Notes under the pieces: generated by a model
Database searches by the model: none
Told to the model about the DNA's origin: nothing
What the model saw: the letters and a program-made list of their open reading frames with translations, nothing else
Translations under genes and position numbers: made by a program
Assembly (NCBI GenBank): GCA_005881695.1
Contig: VBBT01000104.1
Span: 14,941-78,940 of the forward strand
DNA length: 64,000 nucleotides
Source: Candidatus Bathyarchaeota archaeon
Lineage (GTDB): Archaea; Thermoproteota; Bathyarchaeia; 40CM-2-53-6
Reading direction: 5' to 3'
Shown: piece by piece, positions 16,280 to 40,916 of the stretch
Numbering within the stretch: position 1 is the first letter of the stretch
How the letters are laid out: every line of letters begins with the position of its first letter

Positions 16280-16633
16280 TTAGCGGCCTGAGGTATTGGA
16301 GGTGGCCACGGACGCACCCTTGAAGGTGTATCCGAGGAATCCTCCGATGAGGCCTAGGATCAATCCGACAAAGTTCAGTGATATTACCGAGAAGACGAGC
16401 ACGAGTATTGACCCTATTTTCCTCTGAGCCGCGTTGTTGTACAGCAGCCAAGATCCGACGAGCGTCAGTATGCCTGCGATGCTTCCCCATACCAGGATCA
16501 TTGTTGAGCTGATTCCTGGTATCAGCAGGGAGCTGACTGTGGTGGCGATGAAGGCACTGATCAGGGTGATTAGCCCTGCGAGCGCTGACAGCGCGAAGGC
16601 TGCTGTAGGCTTTGGTGCAGTGTTTGCTGCCAA
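16280..16633 (-). CDS. Small integral membrane protein
   Basis: 117 aa with 3-4 hydrophobic helices. The overlapping alternative-frame ORF (16263..16772) is Arg/His-rich and judged spurious. Confidence 0.4.
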   Translation of the reverse strand: MAANTAPKPTAAFALSALAGLITLISAFIATTVSSLLIPGISSTMILVWGSIAGILTLVGSWLLYNNAAQRKIGSILVLVFSVISLNFVGLILGLIGGFLGYTFKGASVATSNTSGR

Positions 16634-17153
16634 AGTTCATCCTTACAGGTAACCCACGCTTGTAGACTATCAACGAACTGTAACCCCCGAGCCTGTGCAT
16701 GGCGCACCCCGATGCACAATCACGGCAAAGATTCTGCAAAGCACTTCGGCCCCGCTTACAAAAGGCTCTCATGAGCCTGGAAGGCGCCGGTATTCAATTT
16801 CACCAAGGAAGAACCTCTGGGCAGCGACCTGTGAACGTGGATTTTTTTTGGCGATTTCACGAAGGGCGCGGCGCGGGAAAATCGACCACCCCGGGGGGTC
16901 ACATAATAGTTAGCGAAAAAAGAATAGTTACATAAAAAAAGGAAGATTTGTAACGGGTGAAAATTAGGGGCGACCGACTGTTTGGGAGAGGCATGCCTAT
17001 TCTTGGAAGGAATAGATTGCCGTCAAGATGGTTGCGGCATGTGAACTTTTGTTGCGGGTCGTGGGATGGAACAGATGGCACCATCTCCCATTGTCAGTCT
17101 CATCCAAGGTTAATCTATTGAGCCCCCCGTAGGCCAATCTTGGAAAATACGGG

Positions 17154-31080: not shown

Positions 31081-31623
31081 TTAGGGGTTCACGTTAATTT
31101 TCCCATTCTGCATGAACACATGGATCGGACAGGAGATGTAACAGTAGACCGTAAACGAGCCTAATTGATTAGCGGTAAACGTCACATCACTACACTTGCC
31201 GGGACCCAGCGCAAATCCGCTGAAGTAGCGCTGTATCGCAAACCCATGAGACTGAATTGTATCATTGTTTATGACATGAATCGTAACGGTTCTCCCCATG
31301 GTAACATTCATTATAGGCCAAGAGCCGCTTTGGAACTTGCTACCGTTGAACCCGACATTCATCCCTTCGTTAGCCATGACGACGACAAAGTAGGTAGAGC
31401 TTGCCGGCACGCTCGCGGGTCGGGCCCAACAGTTGGTTGTCCCGAGACCGAAGAAATGAAACTTATACGCCGCAGCGAAAAACCCGGTGACTGCCACGAC
31501 GATGAGTACGATCACAAGCACCCGTCGCAAAAGTCTTGTTCGCGGGAGTTCTTCCCCGCTTGAGCTCCCAGCTAGCTTTCCGTTACTACTAGTCTCTGAG
31601 TGGACCGGCAAGGTAAGTTGCAT
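31081..31623 (-). CDS. Membrane-anchored blue copper (amicyanin/plastocyanin-like cupredoxin) protein
   Basis: N-terminal TM helix, then a cupredoxin domain. Ligand pattern: ...INNDTIQSHGFAI... and YCYISCPIHVFMQNGKINV. Compare amicyanin YHCTPHPFMRGKVVV, with ligands His, Cys-x2-His-x2-Met. A paralog sits at 38968..39372. Confidence 0.6.
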   Translation of the reverse strand: MQLTLPVHSETSSNGKLAGSSSGEELPRTRLLRRVLVIVLIVVAVTGFFAAAYKFHFFGLGTTNCWARPASVPASSTYFVVVMANEGMNVGFNGSKFQSGSWPIMNVTMGRTVTIHVINNDTIQSHGFAIQRYFSGFALGPGKCSDVTFTANQLGSFTVYCYISCPIHVFMQNGKINVNP

Positions 31624-31800: not shown

Positions 31801-32607
31801 ATGCTGGGATTCGCTGAGAGTTTCCTCCCGTGGACTGCATCGACGCTGATTCCCGCGTTTGTAGGGTTACTCCTTATCGTGTTGGTAGGAATGAAATTAC
31901 AGGCAAGATACGTTGCCGCGTTTGCTTTCGGGATTTTGTTCTGGTTTTTCGTGGACACGATAACCGGGGCAGCAAGCCTCGATGTCAACTCGGGTTTCTC
32001 CGGAGGCCTAGGTCAACTTGCAATGATAGGGCTCTTTGTTATCGGCCTGCTCTTCTTCTTTTCAATTGATCGGAATCGAAATATCTTCTCGCCTGAGTTA
32101 GCAATTGGAAAATATGGTTTGGCGATACCCTTGCTAGTTGCGACGGCATTAGGAGTGCACGGGCTCGGCGAGGGCGCAGCCTTCGGGGGAACAGCTGCGC
32201 TGACAACAAGCACGTCCCTTCTCGACACATTCGGCGGCGTTTCCGGCGGAGTAGCGTACGTTCTACACAAGGCACTTGAACCTATGATAATAGGCGCTTG
32301 CTATTGCGCATACTCTATCCAACACGCTAAGACTACTACAGTTCGCCTGAGAGACCTTGCAATTCTGAGCATAATCTTCACGATTCCCTCGCTCATCGGC
32401 GCTGCCAGCGGCTATTACCTAACCTACGACAGCAGCTACTTCTACGCCCTGGGCACCGGAACAGCAATCTATGCCGCGGTGAGGCTCTTTGGACCGATGT
32501 TCAACAAGGCGAACCCTGCAAGCTCGAAGGAATCGATGACGATGGCGGTGCTCATAACCCTTGGACTCCTAACAATCTATTTCGCTGCCTTATTCCATTC
32601 AGGCTAA
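31801..32607 (+). CDS. ZIP-family (ZupT-like) metal cation transporter
   Basis: 8 TM helices; HGLGEGAAFGG and LHKALEP motifs resemble the ZIP TM4/TM5 H-x-x-x-EG signatures. Confidence 0.4.
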   Translation: MLGFAESFLPWTASTLIPAFVGLLLIVLVGMKLQARYVAAFAFGILFWFFVDTITGAASLDVNSGFSGGLGQLAMIGLFVIGLLFFFSIDRNRNIFSPELAIGKYGLAIPLLVATALGVHGLGEGAAFGGTAALTTSTSLLDTFGGVSGGVAYVLHKALEPMIIGACYCAYSIQHAKTTTVRLRDLAILSIIFTIPSLIGAASGYYLTYDSSYFYALGTGTAIYAAVRLFGPMFNKANPASSKESMTMAVLITLGLLTIYFAALFHSG

Positions 32608-32737: not shown

Positions 32738-33124
32738 CTATCGGACCACGAGGAGCCTGACGGTTTTCAGCTTCTTCTCTTTCTGGAAGGCACTAGTCAT
32801 CGAAGCGACCTTCCTCCCTTCCCCCTCTAGGAGAAAGAGTTCGAAGCAATTGTTTTGGCCCATCTTATTGTGAATATGGGTTCGCACAATGTCATCATAG
32901 GCATGTTTCAACCTAGTGATTGGCTCTTCATTCGACTCATCGTGTGTAACTACGAGGATTGCAGCTACTCGGCCGATGAGTGACGCTTTCTCTCTTGAGT
33001 CAGATAGTAGGAGACGTATTGCGGCTCTGACTACGTCAGATCTCCCTGCGTATCCTTGGGATTCCTGAATCGCTGTCATCGAATCGACCAGTTCGTTGGG
33101 TAACGAGACGCTAACGATGGGCAT
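32738..33124 (-). CDS. nikR: Nickel-responsive transcriptional regulator NikR
   Basis: Ribbon-helix-helix N-terminus VSVSLPNELVDSMTAIQESQGYAGRSDVVRAAIRLL plus a C-terminal metal-binding domain with H-x-...-H-I-H-...-C (VTHDES...RTHIHNKMGQNNC); 128 aa. Confidence 0.8.
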   Translation of the reverse strand: MPIVSVSLPNELVDSMTAIQESQGYAGRSDVVRAAIRLLLSDSREKASLIGRVAAILVVTHDESNEEPITRLKHAYDDIVRTHIHNKMGQNNCFELFLLEGEGRKVASMTSAFQKEKKLKTVRLLVVR

Positions 33125-33218
33125 GTGTCTGTGCCATAATAATTTCCAGCTGACTCCTTATATTAGGATTATTAAAATCCGGAAAATACTTAATAATTCC
33201 ATCTCAATCTCGCGTAAC

Positions 33219-34085
33219 GTGATCCCTCTTCTCCCAGAATGGATCGTTCTCTTGCTTGGCTCTCTGGGTCTCGGAATGCTCCACGGGGTCATTCCGGACG
33301 AACACACTTGGCCAATCACTTTCAGCTATTCAGTGGGATCAGCTACAGGGAGAGGAGGAATGCTCTCGGGAACGTTCTTCGCCTCAGCTTTTACACTCCA
33401 ACGCGCAATTATGGCTCAGCTCGTCTACTTCGCCCTCGCTAGTTATCTCGCCTTTGACGAGGGCTTGAACGCGCTTGTCTACGTGGCGGTCGGGATCGCG
33501 ATGTCCCTTGCGGGGTACTTGATATTGTCTGGGAAATTGCCGTCTTGGCATCCCCTTGCTCGATTCCTGCGCACTCATGCTAGAACACATTACGACGAGA
33601 AAGGCATCTCAAGACGAGTTCCCACACACTGGTGTGTAATCCATGGATTCATCGCGGGCTTCGGTGTCGATACAGGCCTCTTCACCACTTTCATCTACTT
33701 GGTCGCTGTTCCAGCGATGCCAGCAGCGTATCTTGGATTCGCACCTGGAGCGGCATTCGGCTTTGGCACACTAATCGTGCTGCTTGCGATTGGTTCAGTG
33801 TTCGGCGGTGTCCTCCAGATCGCGAAGAAGTGGGGTCCGGAGCGAGTCCAGCTCTTCGGCACAAGAGCCGGGGCACGCAGCCTATTTTACGGCGGGATAA
33901 TATTCATCATCGCGGGAATACTCTTCCGAACCGGTATACAAGACACCATTCCGCTGGATTTTGGAAATCTGATTGTCTTAGCGTTTATGATCGGGGTAAT
34001 CGTTCCGGTAATGATCGTCACCTGGAGAGAAGTCAAAACGATCCCTGCGCCTGAAGCATTGACTCATATCGCCAGATCTTCCTGA
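33219..34085 (+). CDS. NicO/RcnA-like nickel/cobalt transporter family membrane protein
   Basis: LHGVIPDEH in TM1 resembles the NiCoT H-x4-D-H signature. It is divergently adjacent to nikR. The proposed start is GTG 33219, because the annotated upstream part of the ORF is AT-rich and promoter-like. Confidence 0.45.
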   Translation: MIPLLPEWIVLLLGSLGLGMLHGVIPDEHTWPITFSYSVGSATGRGGMLSGTFFASAFTLQRAIMAQLVYFALASYLAFDEGLNALVYVAVGIAMSLAGYLILSGKLPSWHPLARFLRTHARTHYDEKGISRRVPTHWCVIHGFIAGFGVDTGLFTTFIYLVAVPAMPAAYLGFAPGAAFGFGTLIVLLAIGSVFGGVLQIAKKWGPERVQLFGTRAGARSLFYGGIIFIIAGILFRTGIQDTIPLDFGNLIVLAFMIGVIVPVMIVTWREVKTIPAPEALTHIARSS

Positions 34086-34380
34086 CCCTGCACGGGCACG
34101 TTTACCCCATCACTATCGGATAAGTTGGGGCGGGAGCGGGATTTGGATACCAGTTTACTGGTACACATAAACGGCTCATGGGCAATCCCTCCCAAGAGTT
34201 CACACACAGTGAGCCACTCTAATTCCAATAATTAACGTTGAACAATGAAACTTTCCGTGAGGTGGGTTTCCAGCCGGACGCAGGTTTCAAGGGATTCAGA
34301 CGCAACACTTTTACTTTTGTAAGGCACAGCGCTTAAGTGGCGCTTTCGAAGCAGGTCACGTGCAGTCTCTTGGAAACTGA

Positions 34381-35137
34381 GAAGTGCTCCTATTGTGGGG
34401 CGTCCGTCAAGAAGGAGAATCTGGGAGGACATGTTGAAAGAGTTCACCCCAAACGGTCTAGGTCGTTCGAGGCCAGGCCTAAGACGGTAAGTAAATCTAT
34501 CAAGACTGGTTCCTCCTTTCGTACCCATCGAAAAAGAAACATCGCGATTCTATCCTTGGTGCTGTTGACAGTTATCGGGATTGCCGTTCTCGCCTTTCCA
34601 GCGCAGAATATGAATATGCCAGGAACAAATCCAGGTCCAGCCTCCCCTGGGTCTATTGAACAGTTCAGTTATTTGAACCAGCAGGTGAGTCGTTGTTTGT
34701 GGGGTGCAAACATGGGAGACGAAATGGGCTACACGAATTGGATTAACGGGTTGGCAGACGATACTTACCTTCAGGGAGCCTGCTGTAACCCTATGGTCGC
34801 AACGGACTACCAGAATCAAATTTCCGAACTTTCGAACTATACGTCTTTGTCTTCGCTGATTGCTAAAGACCCGTATAACATCCCATCTCAGGTTGCAAAG
34901 GCTGATATTGCTGGGGGAAAACTGATTCTCACTAGTGACCAGCAGTCCGTCCTCGCAAATGCCGCAACCTTGTCAAAGGAGAATTGGTGTTGTTGCCAGT
35001 GTTGGAGCTGGTATCAGCACGAAGGACTCGGCAAGATTTTGATTGTCAACTACGGATACTCTGCACAACAGGTCGCTCGTGTCATTGACCTCGAGGCGTG
35101 CTGTGGTACCGGTACCGGCCCTATGAGGATGAATTGA
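34381..35137 (+). CDS. Membrane-tethered protein: N-terminal C2H2-like zinc finger, basic linker, one TM helix, Cys-rich extracytoplasmic domain
   Basis: ETEKCSYCGASVKKENLGGHVERVHPKRS...FRTHRKRNIAILSLVLLTVIGIAV aligns closely with the N-terminus of the 37256..37876 protein. The extracytoplasmic part has CC, CCCQC and CC clusters. The start is proposed at TTG 34381 by analogy with the paralog; the ORF track starts at 34337. Confidence 0.5.
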
Positions 35138-35402: not shown

Positions 35403-35711
35403 TCAGCAGGATCCATTCATGTTGTATTGCTGCATCATCGCCTGGCACTGTGCCATATCATATGACCCCATCATGTTCGCGCATTGAGACATATCATTCG
35501 AACCCATCATGGATTCGCATTCAGTCATATCAGTGTGATCCATCATCGACTGGCACTGAGCCTGTATAGAGCGTGGATTTCCCATCATGTTACTCATCAT
35601 CCCCCAGCCGGTAGGTGAGTGCATAGCCGCCTGCGCATAGACTACCGCACATACAGCAAATAGGGTTACTGAGATGGCGACAATAACTGCTAACCTGCGT
35701 CTTTCTCCCAT
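35403..35711 (-). CDS. Secreted methionine-rich repeat protein (putative Cu(I)-binding, CopM/PcoE-like)
   Basis: Signal/anchor helix, then repeats C-x-SMMGSNDMSQC / ANMMGSYDMAQC / QAMMQQYNM. These are M-x-x-M / MM motifs; 102 aa. Confidence 0.5.
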   Translation of the reverse strand: MGERRRLAVIVAISVTLFAVCAVVYAQAAMHSPTGWGMMSNMMGNPRSIQAQCQSMMDHTDMTECESMMGSNDMSQCANMMGSYDMAQCQAMMQQYNMNGSC

Positions 35712-35882: not shown

Positions 35883-36161
35883 CTAGCTCGTTGTTCTTCT
35901 CAGTGCGTATTTTCTGAGAAAGTGGGTGTAGGTCTCCTCGCTGCAGACGAATGGAATGTCCGGCCGCCCTTCGATCTTGACCTCAGCGTCAATTACCACA
36001 GTCGGGACCACCGTCACCCCGTACTTCTTCGCCAGGTCCATGTTCTCGGACACGTCGTGGATTGTCAGCTGGCAACCGTTGCATTTGCCTGCCTCAATCT
36101 CGTTCACGAACTCGACGCAGAGTGGGCATCCCGCGGAGAATACTTCGATTTTGTGCGGCAT
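35883..36161 (-). CDS. Small thioredoxin-fold protein (CxxC)
   Basis: VFSAGCPLCVEF redox motif plus a second CNGC; 92 aa. Typical of the Thioredoxin_3 / small glutaredoxin-like family. Confidence 0.55.
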   Translation of the reverse strand: MPHKIEVFSAGCPLCVEFVNEIEAGKCNGCQLTIHDVSENMDLAKKYGVTVVPTVVIDAEVKIEGRPDIPFVCSEETYTHFLRKYALRRTTS

Positions 36162-36236: not shown

Positions 36237-36971
36237 ATGGCATTTGGAGTATCTTCTTCATTAGCATGCGTGACCTGCGGTTGTAGAGAAACCTCATGTG
36301 AAGGCTGCCATACCCCCTCGGACTGCTCCAACTGTGCGTCATGCTGCTGCAATACCTCTCATCAGTCATGGAGACAAGCGAGAATCAGGAATGGAATCAA
36401 GATCGAATACATCAGCTCGGGATGGATGACGGTTGAGGTTTTGGGGTCGATTGGATTTGGAGTGGTTGCCGGAAGTTTCGCCCTATTGGCGTTCGGGGGC
36501 GATAGTCTGATTGAACTGATTTCTGGCATCGCAGTCTTGACAAACTTGCGAAAGGACTCCAGTAGCAATACCGGTAATGGAATGTACGGCAAGAGGACGG
36601 AACAATTCACGAGCGCGCTGCTCTTCGCTCTTATTCCCGTCATTGGGTTAGGCATGGTTTATTCGTACTTTTCGGGGTTGAAGCCAGAGGGATCGGTACT
36701 GGGGATCGCGATAGCTATCGGAGCGGTTATCGTGATGCCTTATCTGTACGTTGAGAAGAAAAAGATAGGGAGAGAGACTCGGTCGCTGCCTCTCTCGATT
36801 GATGCTATAGAGTCGGTGACCTGCATTTTCATGGCCGTAGCTCTCCTCGGTGGCCTTCTTGCAGAATATTTCTTGGGGATCTGGTGGGCTGACTATCTAG
36901 CGACTGGTGTCATACTCGCATTCGTGGCGAAAGAAGCTGTTGAATCATACGGCGAAATCCGTGAAGAATGA
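36237..36971 (+). CDS. Cation diffusion facilitator-like metal efflux protein with Cys-rich N-terminus
   Basis: N-terminal CVTCGCRETSCEGCHTPSDCSNCASCCC, then TM helices with FALLAFGGDSLIELISGIAV, which resembles the CDF motif ALLADAGHMLTD. 244 aa, shorter than typical CDF proteins. Confidence 0.5.
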   Translation: MAFGVSSSLACVTCGCRETSCEGCHTPSDCSNCASCCCNTSHQSWRQARIRNGIKIEYISSGWMTVEVLGSIGFGVVAGSFALLAFGGDSLIELISGIAVLTNLRKDSSSNTGNGMYGKRTEQFTSALLFALIPVIGLGMVYSYFSGLKPEGSVLGIAIAIGAVIVMPYLYVEKKKIGRETRSLPLSIDAIESVTCIFMAVALLGGLLAEYFLGIWWADYLATGVILAFVAKEAVESYGEIREE

Positions 36972-36998: not shown

Positions 36999-37179
36999 TG
37001 GTGCGGGGGGTGGGATTCGAACCCACGAAGGCCTACGCCACGGGATAGCACACCCGCGCTTCGCGAGGGCATTGATCGTTCCTAAGCCCTCGCGGAATTG
37101 GGTCTTGAGTGTAGCGCGCGCATGCCAAGCGCGACCCGCCCATTTAGTCAGATGTTTGACCTGACTCTGGTACCCCCGC
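36999..37179 (-). tRNA. tRNA gene with a large intron or introns (anticodon unresolved)
   Basis: Minus-strand sense 3' end: gtgggTTCGAATcccac-cccccgc-a-CCA, giving T-arm, 7-nt acceptor strand, discriminator and CCA. The complementary 5' acceptor strand gcggggg is 181 nt upstream (rc of 37173..37179). The roughly 105 extra nt include a perfect 9-bp hairpin, cgcgagggc...gccctcgcg, consistent with one or more introns. Confidence 0.5.
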
Positions 37180-37255: not shown

Positions 37256-37876
37256 CTAAGTTGCGAGCGTCATCACAATCTGCTGCGGCTTGTCCCTAAG
37301 CACTACGTCTTGTGTGGCCGAAGGTAGGACTTGCCCGTCGACGCTGACGGATGAGACGGGATGCCCGTTGATGCTGCTTCCATCGGAGGGTTGTCCCCAG
37401 ATGGCCAGGAACTGGTGCAGTGTAAAGTCTCTAACTGTATTCGATTCAACGTGGATAAGCCCGCTAGTGTCGTGGGTGTGTATTGGTGCCAAGCCGCTCA
37501 AACCATATTGATCTAGAGAATGGTCCTTCCATAGACTTGGATCAATCCCGATTTGGGCGGGGACCTGCACTGGGCTACCGTTCAAGGTTATGGAGAGTTG
37601 CGGATGGATATGCATGCGCAGAGTGTTGGCTGCAACAAACTCTACAGCAACAATTGAAACTCCCATAACAGCAAGCACAATGAGTGAAAGAAGTAGCATG
37701 TTTTTCTTCTTGTGGCTTCGGAAGGCTGAAGGGGCTCTGGCCAGGGGCACCGTCTTGGGTTGAACGAGGGACCCGGCTCGTCTTGGGTGCACCTTTGCGT
37801 AGTGAGACTTCAGATTCTCTTTTTTAACTGGGCTCCCGCAGACGGGACATTTCTCAGATTCCAATAACAGTATCAT
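37256..37876 (-). CDS. Membrane-tethered protein: N-terminal C2H2-like zinc finger, TM helix, extracytoplasmic HTHD-motif domain
   Basis: MILLLESEKCPVCGSPVKKENLKSHYAKVHPRR (C-x2-C-x11-H-x4-H), a basic linker, a TM helix, then ...LAPIHTHDTSGLIHVESNTVRDFTLHQFLAIWGQ. It is a paralog of 34381..35137 at the N-terminus and of 38091..38702 in the extracytoplasmic domain. Confidence 0.5.
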   Translation of the reverse strand: MILLLESEKCPVCGSPVKKENLKSHYAKVHPRRAGSLVQPKTVPLARAPSAFRSHKKKNMLLLSLIVLAVMGVSIVAVEFVAANTLRMHIHPQLSITLNGSPVQVPAQIGIDPSLWKDHSLDQYGLSGLAPIHTHDTSGLIHVESNTVRDFTLHQFLAIWGQPSDGSSINGHPVSSVSVDGQVLPSATQDVVLRDKPQQIVMTLAT

Positions 37877-38090: not shown

Positions 38091-38702
38091 TTGGATGCCT
38101 TCGGAGGCGGGCGCTTGGCGAAGACGAGCAGGAAGCAGAGGATTTTACAAGATGTCCAGAGAAAGCGCCGCCAGAGAGCAGTAGTAACAGCGATCATAGC
38201 GGCAATCCTTATCGCTGTGATAGTCGGAGGCATTTATGCGCTCATCCTACCCAAAAACGAGCAGACTATACTCATACCAGCTAATATCGGGTTTGACAGC
38301 AGTTGTGCAAGGCCGCTGCACACCCATGACGTCTCCGGAACAATTCATGTTGAAACAAATGTAAATCAGAACTATTCAATCGCCGATTTCTTTCTGATCT
38401 GGGGAAAAGTTTTCAATAGCAGCGGAATATTTCAGTCGAACCAGCCCTTACCTTCCTACTTGAACTGCATAACAGGTACTCTGCTTTACCACTCCCATCC
38501 AACACTGACCATCATATACAAGAAAGACTTCCCAACTCAGATCAACATGACCGTCAACGGCACACCGGTGTCACCTAACCCAAATCCGAACCTTCAACTG
38601 CCCCGAAACGCTGCAACCCCGAGTGCACCCTGCACCCCAGGACCATGCGAGGCTTTCAGTATCGTCATAACGTATGGTCCAGGCATACCAGCTAGCTTCT
38701 AG
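38091..38702 (+). CDS. Membrane-anchored HTHD-motif domain protein (paralog of 37256..37876, lacking the zinc finger)
   Basis: Basic N-terminus, a TM helix, ARPLHTHDVSGTIHVETNVNQNYSIADFFLIWGK, and a C-terminal Pro/Cys-rich tail PCTPGPCEAF. Confidence 0.5.
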   Translation: MDAFGGGRLAKTSRKQRILQDVQRKRRQRAVVTAIIAAILIAVIVGGIYALILPKNEQTILIPANIGFDSSCARPLHTHDVSGTIHVETNVNQNYSIADFFLIWGKVFNSSGIFQSNQPLPSYLNCITGTLLYHSHPTLTIIYKKDFPTQINMTVNGTPVSPNPNPNLQLPRNAATPSAPCTPGPCEAFSIVITYGPGIPASF

Positions 38703-38967
38703 TAAAAGCCGCAGCGGCTTGAAAGGAGAGTGCCTGCTCCAGCGTATCTCCTCCGAATCCGTTCAGAGGACGTCTCCTCGCGTCTTTCGGGGGTAACTTT
38801 TTGCCCAAACCACTTGAATGCTCCGAATTGCGCTTACTGAATTCCCACACTGAATGACACGGACCATATGTGCCAAGACTCTTTTAGTTGGTTTCCTGTA
38901 CGGTAAATCCGCCTGGCTACTCCACCCCAAGACAGGTTTCGAGAGCAAACTATTGAGAACTAGCGAG

Positions 38968-39372
38968 ATGGTCGTAATCGCGCTCGTTGCCGCATCTCTC
39001 GCAGCAGGCGGAGTGTTCGCAGTAGTACTCAGCCCTCCCCCGTCTCCTTGCTCGGGAGCGACAGGAGCGATTCGGTCCTTTACAATTATGGTAGATTTGA
39101 CAGGTTACAACGGGAGCCAATCTCACAACGGTTCTTGGCCTGTCGTTTCGGTTCAGCGTTGTGACAATGTGGTTTTCACAGTTATCAATAACGACACCCA
39201 ATCTCATGGGTTCGCAGTGACCTATTACTCCAACGCCGGTTTGGAGCTTGTAGGAGGTGCACGCCAGACGCTGAAGTTTCAAGCTACAAGGACTGGAGAG
39301 TTCCAGATATATTGCACGATCAAGTGCTCGGTTCACTACCTAATGCAAAATGGTCTTCTAAACGTAACCTAA
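38968..39372 (+). CDS. Membrane-anchored blue copper (amicyanin/plastocyanin-like) protein, paralog of 31081..31623
   Basis: INNDTQSHGFAV and YCTIKCSVHYLMQNGLLNV match the same His / Cys-x2-His-x2-Met pattern as the paralog. The start is proposed at ATG 38968, just before the TM helix. Confidence 0.6.
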   Translation: MVVIALVAASLAAGGVFAVVLSPPPSPCSGATGAIRSFTIMVDLTGYNGSQSHNGSWPVVSVQRCDNVVFTVINNDTQSHGFAVTYYSNAGLELVGGARQTLKFQATRTGEFQIYCTIKCSVHYLMQNGLLNVT

Positions 39373-39395: not shown

Positions 39396-40916
39396 ATGCG
39401 ACTATCATACGCGATCGCGCCAATCCTGATCCTCATTTTCTTCTCCACACCAGCGTCCTACGCAACTCCCCTCACTCGTGCAGTTAGCCAGCCAGATATT
39501 GTTCAATCCAGTCCTCAATCCTACGTAACTTTCATGCAGAAACCTCTAGATTCGAGCCCCAGCCCATGGGTCCTTTATCCAACAGACACGGTCGTGTGGG
39601 TCGCAGGAATATCCTCAGGAACGCCGCCGACCTCTCAGATCCGGGAATACTTCATAGTGAATGGAACTTCGAAACCCGTAGCCAATCTCCCGAACGTAAT
39701 AGTCAGCTCCTTGGTTGCTGATTCTCTGGGCCGAGTTTGGTTCACCGACAATTCGACACTTGCATACTACGACAGCCAACGCCTGACCGTGAATAAGACG
39801 ATAACTTTTCCTAACCAAAACCTAGAGTACTTGGCGCTAGATCATCAGGAGAGAATATGGATGACAGTGTTGGGACCTAATGGCGCCAGCAACGTCGTCA
39901 TGTTCGATCCCACTAATAGTTTGAACCGGACCTATCTGGTTCCGACCACCAACGCGTTCATTCAAGGAATAACCGCAGCTCCAGACAATACAGTATGGTT
40001 CGCAGAAGCCGGGTCGATGAAGCTTGGTCATCTTGCCTGTGACAGCTGCGACATCACCGAGTTTCCTTCACCTTCGTCTCTCAATCTAGCAGCGCTTTCA
40101 CAGGTGGCGGTTGATAGATCAGGCAACATTTGGTTCACCGATCATGCGGGCGACAACCAATTTGGAGTGTTTGACTCACATGCCAATACTTGGAAGATTT
40201 TCCCTATCGGTTATTGTCCAGATGCTTGTGTTTCCGGCCTTCCCAACGCCATTTTTGTTGACGCATACAACAAGATCTGGTTCTCGGAACACATTGCTGG
40301 TAGAGTAGGACGCTATGACCCCTCTACTGGTGTCTTGACAGAATATGTTGTCTCTCTCACTCCCAACGCTTTCCCATTGATCTGGTGGGCAAGCCCTGGG
40401 CCCAACAATCTCGTATGGTTTGTTGCAAACGGACTCGGCGAGGTAGGCTACATCAACGCGAGCCTACCCCTTCCGCTGACCCTTACTGGACCTTCAGGGG
40501 AGGTTGCAATCCAAAAAGGAACCACATTGAACATTTCTGTCATCGTAGACTCTCAAGCCCTACAAACCCTGTCCTTCGGCGTTTCTCCGTTGACTCAAGA
40601 CCAAGAGTCTTCGAACTCTCCTGCCCAATTGTACGGGTCTGGGCCTTCAGACATCGGGCCGAACAATAATCCTCAGGCGGTCAACATCGGCATTTCTGCG
40701 GCCTGGAGTGCGATCTCTGGGGCCCGGTACGTAGCTCTCACCGCCACTGAGGGCAACGTCGCAGTAACCATTCATGTCAAAGTAGTAGTTGTTGAGAGTT
40801 CGGTGCCTTTTGTCGCTTTAGGTTTCTCATCCTCGATCGTTCTTGGAGGTTTCGCAATCTACTTGCGAAGGCCTAGGAAACCTAAGCTCCAGCCCTTGAA
40901 AAAAGTCAGAAGGTAG
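39396..40916 (+). CDS. Secreted beta-propeller protein with WF(T/S)(D/E) blade repeats and a C-terminal TM anchor with basic tail
   Basis: Signal peptide MRLSYAIAPILILIFFSTPASYA. At least six repeats: RVWFTDNS, RIWMTVLG, TVWFAEAG, NIWFTDHAG, KIWFSEHIAG, LVWFVANG, reminiscent of Vgb-lyase / NHL-like propeller blades. The C-terminus VPFVALGFSSSIVLGGFAIYLRRPRKPK resembles archaeosortase-type sorting signals. Confidence 0.5.
   Translation: MRLSYAIAPILILIFFSTPASYATPLTRAVSQPDIVQSSPQSYVTFMQKPLDSSPSPWVLYPTDTVVWVAGISSGTPPTSQIREYFIVNGTSKPVANLPNVIVSSLVADSLGRVWFTDNSTLAYYDSQRLTVNKTITFPNQNLEYLALDHQERIWMTVLGPNGASNVVMFDPTNSLNRTYLVPTTNAFIQGITAAPDNTVWFAEAGSMKLGHLACDSCDITEFPSPSSLNLAALSQVAVDRSGNIWFTDHAGDNQFGVFDSHANTWKIFPIGYCPDACVSGLPNAIFVDAYNKIWFSEHIAGRVGRYDPSTGVLTEYVVSLTPNAFPLIWWASPGPNNLVWFVANGLGEVGYINASLPLPLTLTGPSGEVAIQKGTTLNISVIVDSQALQTLSFGVSPLTQDQESSNSPAQLYGSGPSDIGPNNNPQAVNIGISAAWSAISGARYVALTATEGNVAVTIHVKVVVVESSVPFVALGFSSSIVLGGFAIYLRRPRKPKLQPLKKVRR

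Follow-up and report, generated by a model that had tools for sequence, protein, structure and literature searches.

Why would an archaeon place a lone C2H2-type zinc finger at the extreme N-terminus of its membrane proteins, and do so in two genes of one cluster whose outer domains are unrelated? The question is raised by a 64,000-nucleotide stretch of DNA from a Candidatus Bathyarchaeota archaeon (contig VBBT01000104.1, positions 14,941 to 78,940; hereafter the window), in which two genes, here called A and B, encode proteins that share a zinc finger, an R/K-rich linker and a transmembrane (TM) helix, followed in A by a Cys-rich domain and in B by a domain whose His cluster includes the motif HTHD. 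The answer we favor, with a probability of roughly 55%, is that the shared module is a type II head-and-anchor cassette carrying factors for redox chemistry, metal handling and protein folding outside the cytoplasm, in which the zinc finger serves as a docking head.

Open reading frames (ORFs) were called across the window, TM helices were located by hydropathy scan and folds were taken from AlphaFold models. With residues of A numbered from the TTG start at 34370, the two genes comprise the following features:

34337..35137, plus strand: gene A (ORF), the finger-linker-TM-Cys-rich ectodomain protein, 266 aa from a GTG at 34337 or 255 aa from the TTG at 34370 ('METEKC').
34385..34447, plus strand: zinc finger of A, CSYCGASVKKENLGGHVERVH, with the spacing C-x2-C-x11-H-x4-H (motif scan, AlphaFold).
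34448..34540, plus strand: basic, predicted cytoplasmic linker of A (P27-N57), R/K-rich in sequence.
34541..34597, plus strand: TM helix of A (I58-F76), IAILSLVLLTVIGIAVLAF (hydropathy scan; AlphaFold helix 55-74).
34598..35134, plus strand: Cys-rich helical ectodomain of A, with nine invariant Cys in the motifs C, QGxCCxxM, WCCCxCW and LExCCG.
37256..37876, minus strand: gene B (ORF), the finger-linker-TM-HTHD ectodomain protein, 206 aa from an ATG start.
37787..37849, minus strand: zinc finger of B, CPVCGSPVKKENLKSHYAKVH, again C-x2-C-x11-H-x4-H (motif scan, AlphaFold).
37643..37699, minus strand: TM helix of B (M60-V78), MLLLSLIVLAVMGVSIVAV (hydropathy scan; AlphaFold helix 54-84).
37259..37642, minus strand: HTHD ectodomain of B, beta-rich, with the His cluster MHIHP...HTHD...IHVE.

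The original prediction, read from the letters of the window, had claimed a common finger, basic linker and TM module in front of two unrelated domains, and both halves of it hold. The BLASTP alignment of A and B is limited to their N-terminal 83 residues (40/83 identical, 48%; 73% positives; E 2e-23), with identical motif spacing and a hydrophobic helix of 19 residues after the R/K-rich linker in each, and the C-terminal parts reach 25% identity in a forced global alignment, which amounts to noise. The coordinates it had assigned to the module were correct to about 10 nt. Across all six frames of the window, the pattern C..C.{9,14}H.{3,5}H is matched just twice, by these two fingers.

The same prediction had allowed that the segment might be a non-coding 5′ leader upstream of the true starts. 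A comparison of 28 finger codons in six genes (A, B, two from the related locus L001, and single genes from L003 and L004) shows substitutions at codon positions 1:2:3 of 87:51:225, and 148 synonymous versus 105 non-synonymous codon changes; the finger codons are under purifying selection. In both L001 paralogues a stop codon stands immediately 5′ of the METEKC TTG start, so that this TTG is the sole start possible at or upstream of the finger. The close relatives of A, P0157 and P0158, have an ATG where the window has GTG 34337; A may use either start, and the finger lies within its coding sequence both ways. Thus, a non-coding leader or a chance resemblance, for which we found no supporting point, is refuted by the E-value of the A-B alignment, the codon-position bias and the invariance of the metal ligands described next, leaving it practically no likelihood. 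The exact A protein (P0156) is also present in JGI soil metagenomes, and the exact B protein recurs on 12 soil-metagenome contigs with its neighbors unchanged.

How far does the module extend beyond this genome? An exhaustive HMMER search with the N-terminal module alone against 1.84 billion representatives, a test that the original prediction had itself proposed, recovered 149 matches at E <= 1e-3, of which 59 show a TM helix preceded by one or two fingers; word-indexed protein searches returned just 2 and 7 matches for the module. The x2/x11/x4 spacing is identical in 59/59 TM-bearing representatives. An alignment of 53 TM-bearing modules, clustered at <=50% identity, has C6, C9, H21 and H26 invariant and N17 and L18 conserved at 90% or more; the loss of Cys/His residues among homologues, which would have spoken against the module, is not seen. 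We also scanned metagenome contigs with a degenerate DNA pattern encoding CPVCGxxVKxENLxxH, with the second His and everything downstream left unspecified. This gave 123 matches in 120 contigs, with the second His at x4 in 122/123, a TM helix within 70 aa in 115/123 and the finger 2-9 residues from the N-terminus in nearly all. The finger-TM module is a widespread cassette in uncultured archaea. No Pfam or NCBIfam model covering this architecture was found in our profile searches, and a literature search turned up no description of it.

The archaeal origin of the related loci was assigned from marker genes and contexts. The window itself codes for an aEF-1alpha with an eEF1A C-terminal domain, a SecY with a Sec61 plug, HMG-CoA reductase and mevalonate-pathway kinases, and its nearest genomic relatives are soil Bathyarchaeota metagenome-assembled genomes (MAGs). 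L001 (DASPWZ010000032.1) is labelled as part of a Candidatus Dormiibacterota (bacterial) MAG, yet it has an archaeal-type EF-1alpha and S10 and is syntenic both with the archaeal window and with the Bathyarchaeota contig L002; this contig is probably mis-binned.

Fingers of this type are also found in proteins that have no TM helix, as soluble tandem arrays of 3-18 fingers; the x11/x4 spacing is present in 87/106 fingers of 26 multi-finger proteins. One tandem-array protein is labelled DksA by its source. Large CHAT-like metagenome proteins bear three copies of the finger at their C-terminus (e.g., among the multi-finger matches P0013-P0148; P0031, P0050).

What kind of finger is this, and on which side of the membrane does it lie? 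The AlphaFold models place strands at 3-5 and 12-14 and a helix at 15-25 in A (pLDDT, the model's per-residue confidence, 84-88), and strands at 7-9 and 16-18 and a helix at 19-29 in B (pLDDT 84-93), so that the finger is predicted to adopt the beta-beta-alpha C2H2-type fold. In both models a disordered linker (pLDDT 33-45 in A) leads to a long TM helix, and the ectodomain is confidently beta-rich in B and, with moderate confidence, helical in A. Searches of a profile of the finger against PDB sequences retrieved the consensus C2H2 finger 1mey (E 7e-4) and the GAGA factor 1yui (E 0.02-0.03). The nearest Pfam profiles are zf-Di19, zf-C2H2_4, zf-C2H2 and GAGA, and the window proteins fall below the cutoffs of all of them. 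Weak zf-Di19 matches are seen in 15/18 HTHD-class members (best E 3e-4) and GAGA matches in 3/18; B scores 14.6 bits against zf-Di19 (PF05605), whose cutoff is 27.5 bits, and one relative of the DUF929 class is just above it at 27.8 bits. The classical C2H2 Pfam cutoff of 27 bits is reached neither by A, at best 18.5-18.7 bits (zf-H2C2_5), nor by B (12.2 bits), and the classical x12 spacing between Cys and His is absent, with x11 in all 59 representatives and in 122/123 metagenome matches.

In every class of the family, the 8 residues that precede the TM helix carry a net charge of +2, and the 15 that follow it have a net charge of 0. This positive-inside pattern fits an N-in/C-out arrangement and hence the topology originally proposed, in which the finger would be cytoplasmic and the C-terminal domain would lie outside. 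Over the linker, the HTHD and Cys-rich group reaches a net charge of +4/+5, against +1 for the thioredoxin class; a strongly basic linker distinguishes the former group and is not family-wide.

The partner domains and gene neighborhoods bear most directly on what the module is for. A Pfam scan of 50 full-length TM-bearing homologues detected AhpC-TSA/Redoxin/thioredoxin domains in 16, DUF1573 in 4, FtrD-like domains in 3, cyclophilin in 2 and SCO1/SenC in 2; a single weak dCache_1 match was the sole sensor-like partner, and no Pfam family was matched by the roughly 15 HTHD and 5 Cys-rich ectodomains in this set. Complete proteins from the DNA-pattern scan are divided among thioredoxin-like (38), HTHD (38-39), Cys-rich (20), DUF1573 (2) and three-TM DUF929-type (4) classes. 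Most of the partners are thus enzymes or chaperones rather than sensors.

Neighboring genes were counted with ad hoc hidden Markov models (HMMs) on six-frame ORFs of the loci, the seeds being checked against Pfam. In the thioredoxin class (loci among L018-L137), a VKOR gene (seeds PF07884) lies within 3 kb in 36/38 loci, usually 3′ of the finger-TM-thioredoxin gene, and within 1 kb in 27/28 loci having at least 700 nt downstream; one gene of this class sits inside a VKOR-CtaA-COX2-COX1 cluster (L008 6001-7171). The finger-TM-thioredoxin protein and VKOR are probably an archaeal disulfide-forming pair. In the HTHD class, a Met-rich DUF6114 membrane protein is encoded within 1 kb in 17/25 loci with enough flank, a TM-anchored cupredoxin within 3 kb in 17/38 and a Vgb-lyase-like propeller within 3 kb in 18/38; more distant members adjoin a plastocyanin-like gene, a P-type ATPase or an FKBP. 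A distant DUF6114-like ORF is also present elsewhere in the window (16283-16636, minus strand). One member of the DUF1573 class closes a copper operon of the form TRASH-regulator / HMA-P-type-ATPase (CopA) / SHOCT / YHS. Gene A and its L001 orthologue share 91% identity in their Cys-rich ectodomains and 64% in their modules, and the module of the L001 HTHD gene is 65% identical to that of A. Module identities do not sort by ectodomain type, and the module is a transferable unit.

The helix of the finger also constrains what the module may do. In 58 TM-anchored fingers, helix position -1 is K/R in 52/58, +2 is E/D in 46/58 and +3 is N in 56/58 (K-x-E-N-L), whereas the same positions vary in 205 tandem-array fingers, in which +3 is N in 61 and R in 55. 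Since the tandem-array fingers vary there, the N at +3 is dispensable for the fold and is selected in the anchored proteins. A fixed K-x-E-N-L helix, kept even in two paralogues of one genome, points to one common cytoplasmic ligand and against paralogue-specific operators, and thereby against a set of one-component regulators; regulators of different regulons are expected to differ in the recognition helix.

Hence, we propose that the first ~27 residues would fold round one Zn ion as a single C2H2 finger with Di19/GAGA-like spacing, and that a linker of 23-36 residues, positive near the membrane, would lead to one TM helix, with the functional domain outside the cell. The module would set the topology and tether the ectodomain at the outer face of the membrane, and the finger would dock one common cytoplasmic ligand with no paralogue-specific transcriptional output. 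In the window, the cassette would carry the His-cluster HTHD domain and the 9-Cys domain within a NikR / CDF / cupredoxin / propeller cluster. Several considerations weigh against this proposal. A conserved Zn domain is superfluous for a plain anchor; helix positions -1, +2 and +3 are the base-reading positions of canonical C2H2 fingers (Zif268- and GAGA-type), and the closest solved or profile matches of the finger are DNA-binding fingers (1mey, GAGA). The apparent conservation of the anchored helix is inflated, because the TM-anchored fingers were gathered by query-derived profiles or patterns. The docking role, the binding of Zn by the finger and the type II (N-in/C-out), single-TM nature of A and B, including the lack of signal-peptidase cleavage, are all inferred, and the HTHD and Cys-rich domains are judged to be probable metal handlers from their residue content and neighbors only. 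A nucleic-acid function of the finger is a possibility.

That possibility takes its most explicit form in a membrane-tethered regulator of the ToxR/CadC kind, in which the ectodomain would sense a metal or redox cue and the finger and basic linker would bind DNA or RNA. The original prediction leaned this way, likening the architecture to one-component, anti-sigma or CadC-like signaling. The C2H2 fold nearest to DNA-binding fingers (the matches to 1mey, 1yui and Pfam GAGA given above) speaks for it, as do the K/R, E and N conserved at helix -1, +2 and +3, in a K-x-E-N-L-x-R helix that resembles GAN-reading helices and the GAGA finger. Further, the same finger is found in soluble tandem arrays, typical of nucleic-acid binders, the linker is very basic in A and B, the lone dCache_1 match would suit a sensor, and the alternative small helical head borne by some Cys-rich proteins, described below, could be HTH-like. 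On the other hand, the partner domains are mostly catalysts or chaperones, the commonest being a VKOR partner, the recognition helix does not vary with the ectodomain class or between the two paralogues of one genome, and one finger alone reads about 3 bp. A strongly basic linker does not extend to the thioredoxin class (+1), an HTHD paralogue occurs without the finger, and a conventional regulator, NikR, is already present in the cluster. Nor did the specific likenesses hold: the ZAS motif H-x3-C-x2-C is absent (the ligand order is C, C, H, H) and zf-HC2 gives no match with an E-value of up to 1; inspection of the ORFs surrounding A, B and the related loci turned up no sigma-factor gene; and no OmpR-type winged helix was matched by Pfam in A or B, whose head is a 27-residue finger. 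With enzymes and chaperones as partners, the VKOR pairing, a fixed helix, a non-universal basic linker and neither ZAS nor winged helix, the signaling interpretation is not supported, and we regard a regulator as rather unlikely.

A ligand common to all the anchored proteins could be sought in the export machinery, with the finger being a nucleic-acid- or translocon-docking head whose K-x-E-N-L helix binds a universal ligand, for example rRNA of membrane-bound ribosomes or a component of the Sec or signal recognition particle (SRP) apparatus. The common helix, the restricted repertoire of maturation factors, the nucleic-acid-like signature and the short linker permit this more specific version, which we offer as a distinctly speculative extension. 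If it were true, the VKOR-partner thioredoxin, cyclophilin, Sco-like and Cu/Ni-handling domains would be stationed where unfolded exported proteins emerge, as an archaeal hub for co-translocational folding and metallation organized from the cytoplasmic side. Alternatively, the module might be a long cleavable signal peptide, from which signal peptidase would release the ectodomains, leaving the finger-TM stub as a by-product or with a separate role. Small residues are indeed present after the helix (PAQ|N in A, VAA|N in B), and the ectodomains are of a secreted type; but this leaves the strong conservation of the finger unexplained, a folded n-region of ~55 residues is atypical of Sec signal peptides, and thioredoxin-like VKOR partners and Sco/TlpA-type proteins usually act while membrane-tethered, all of which makes cleavage quite improbable. 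Finally, the Cys2His2 site could be a cytoplasmic metal or redox switch that reports Zn/Cu or thiol status (e.g., through replacement of Zn by Cu(I)) and governs how stable or active the outer protein is. Copper and metal contexts do recur, and a CxxC pair could bind Cu(I); however, the idea is purely speculative, the same finger is borne by cyclophilin and general thioredoxin/VKOR pairs with no metal link, and the conserved K-x-E-N surface goes unexplained, so that we consider a switch highly doubtful.

Returning to the head-and-anchor cassette, the ectodomains themselves and their alternative heads are informative. The Cys-rich domain forms a small family of ~39 clusters, all at least 51% identical, with nine invariant Cys and conserved Met. 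Neither it nor the HTHD domain found relatives in profile searches of PDB sequences, Pfam and NCBIfam. A possible link of the Cys-rich domain to the PCYCGC family was dropped, there being no such Pfam match at E up to 1. Both domains probably handle metal, judging by their residues and gene neighbors. In a subset of HTHD proteins (P0023, P0026, P0038) the HxH and HTH histidines are lost together, with T134, G139, E144 and W160 remaining invariant; this joint loss fits the histidines forming one optional metal site.

The Cys-rich domain is also found behind another cytoplasmic head of ~75 aa (MTDWERVERLRADGVSWDKVA...GRALRxLYFQRRSR) and a TM helix (P0179-P0183, P0187-P0189). By eye this head seemed Myb/HTH-like, a resemblance to which Pfam and PDB searches lent no support. 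One such gene (L016 7992-8852) lies beside a sulfocyanin-like cupredoxin and a CDF gene. Together with the HTHD paralogue of the window that has no finger (listed below), this alternative head shows that the finger head is optional and exchangeable.

The genes around A and B form a cluster at ~31-41 kb, in the order cupredoxin, membrane protein, NikR, membrane protein, A, Met/Cys-rich protein, Thioredoxin_3, CDF, tRNA-like element, B, finger-less HTHD, cupredoxin and propeller. They recur in L013, the left part in the same order, and in the exact-match soil contigs. The features other than A and B are:

31081-31623, minus strand: cupredoxin-like gene, a second paralogue flanking the metal cluster (ad hoc HMM, E 1e-29).
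31801-32607, plus strand: membrane protein in the left part of the cluster.
32738-33124, minus strand: NikR (Pfam NikR_C, E 8.7e-13, and RHH_1).
33096-34085, plus strand: membrane protein next to gene A.
35403-35711, minus strand: small anchored Met/Cys-rich protein with the repeats MMGNP..., MMGSNDMSQC and MMGSYDMAQC and no family match.
35883-36161, minus strand: Thioredoxin_3 protein (Pfam, E 2.7e-11), adjoining the Cys-rich gene in L013 too.
36237-36971, plus strand: cation-efflux (CDF) protein (Pfam Cation_efflux, E 1.2e-10).
36999-37179, minus strand: tRNA-like element directly downstream of gene B, with the 3′ end GGGTTCGAATCCCACCCCCCGCACCA and a matching GCGGGGG ~170 nt upstream.
38091..38702, plus strand: HTHD paralogue without the finger (ORF), with the conserved basic N-terminal peptide SRKQRILQDVQRKRRQRA, a TM helix and the HTHD domain; its orthologues recur beside finger-bearing genes.
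38854..39372, plus strand: TM-anchored cupredoxin-like protein, YCTIKCSVHYLM (Pfam Cupredoxin_1, weak; NCBIfam NosZ C-terminal domain, TIGR04246, E 1.3e-9, and nitrosocyanin, E 3e-5, both below cutoff).
39396..40916, plus strand: Vgb-lyase-like beta-propeller with a C-terminal TM helix (NCBIfam VgbA, E 9.4e-14, below cutoff; Pfam Vgb_lyase on an orthologue).

The small Met/Cys-rich protein is possibly a Cu(I)-binding protein, given its repeats. The TM-anchored cupredoxin, which bears a CuA-like C-x3-C-x2-H-x2-M motif, is accompanied in every case (in the window, L001 12387-14581, L004 6721-8751 and L013 140-2112) by a Vgb-lyase/lactonase-like propeller, and also matches weakly a model for clade III lactonase-type NosZ. 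Together the two might make up a copper enzyme that is split, NosZ-like or novel in some other way. The features of the tRNA-like element suggest an intron-containing archaeal tRNA; its segment 37002-37059 alone scores 22.9 bits against Rfam tRNA, below the gathering score of 29 bits, and ARAGORN called no tRNA in this region.

Little is known of how archaea organize extracytoplasmic protein oxidation, folding and metal insertion. The cassette is a simple sequence signature that marks a coherent set of such factors, including the likely substrate-facing partner of the archaeal VKOR and two uncharacterized, probably metal-binding domains. The conservation of a finger on the inner face of the membrane would imply an undescribed connection, by docking, localization or regulation, from the cytoplasm to maturation outside it. 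These results also show that a class of C2H2 finger usually associated with eukaryotes and with DNA binding occurs commonly among the membrane proteins of archaea.

How does the cassette compare with known systems? With the classical C2H2 fingers of the Di19 (PF05605) and GAGA (PF09237/1yui) types, it shares the predicted beta-beta-alpha fold and the Cys2His2 ligands. The H-x4-H of the GAGA finger is the same as in the module, and Di19 fingers share the x11/x4 spacing. The core F and L positions of classical fingers are filled by V and L, and the module is one residue shorter than the classical C-x12-H. It further differs from classical, Di19 and GAGA fingers in that it occurs once, at the very N-terminus, with a TM helix after it, and in archaea. 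In plants, Di19 proteins are transcription factors of the C2H2 zinc-finger type (PMC12109150, PMC13299491). The UBZ4 ubiquitin-binding fingers (RAD18, PDB 5vf0), whose last ligand is a Cys after x3, unlike that of the module, and whose matches are not significant, serve solely to show that such a geometry can belong to a protein-binding finger.

Among membrane proteins, the ZAS/zf-HC2 anti-sigma factors and the bacterial zinc-ribbon-TM proteins likewise link a small Zn domain in the cytoplasm, through one TM helix, to an outside domain that varies. The ZAS motif, H-x3-C-x2-C, binds a sigma factor, whereas the fold and ligand order of the module differ and its partners are enzymes; archaea are not known to have sigma factors. 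ToxR and CadC resemble the cassette in being bitopic, with a variable outer domain and, possibly as here, a nucleic-acid-binding head inside; but they have an OmpR-type winged helix and a dedicated sensor domain, whereas the cassette has one finger, its helix invariant, and ectodomains that act as catalysts or chaperones. A parallel in layout is offered by thiol-disulfide oxidoreductases and copper chaperones anchored outside the membrane (TlpA/ResA/DsbA-like, SCO1/SenC) and by the VKOR-thioredoxin partner proteins, which have an N-terminal anchor and an outward catalytic domain; members of the family carry Redoxin/AhpC-TSA/SCO1 domains beside VKOR, CtaA and COX genes. The ectodomains of A and B differ from TlpA/ResA/DsbA-like proteins in lacking the thioredoxin fold with its CxxC active site, which many of their relatives do have, with no Pfam match to the thioredoxin family and models that are helical for A and beta-rich, non-thioredoxin for B. 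The known proteins of the TlpA/ResA/DsbA/SCO1 type have a plain or lipid anchor and no cytoplasmic zinc finger. The cassette joins two known kinds of element, a C2H2 finger and signal-anchored periplasmic-side factors.

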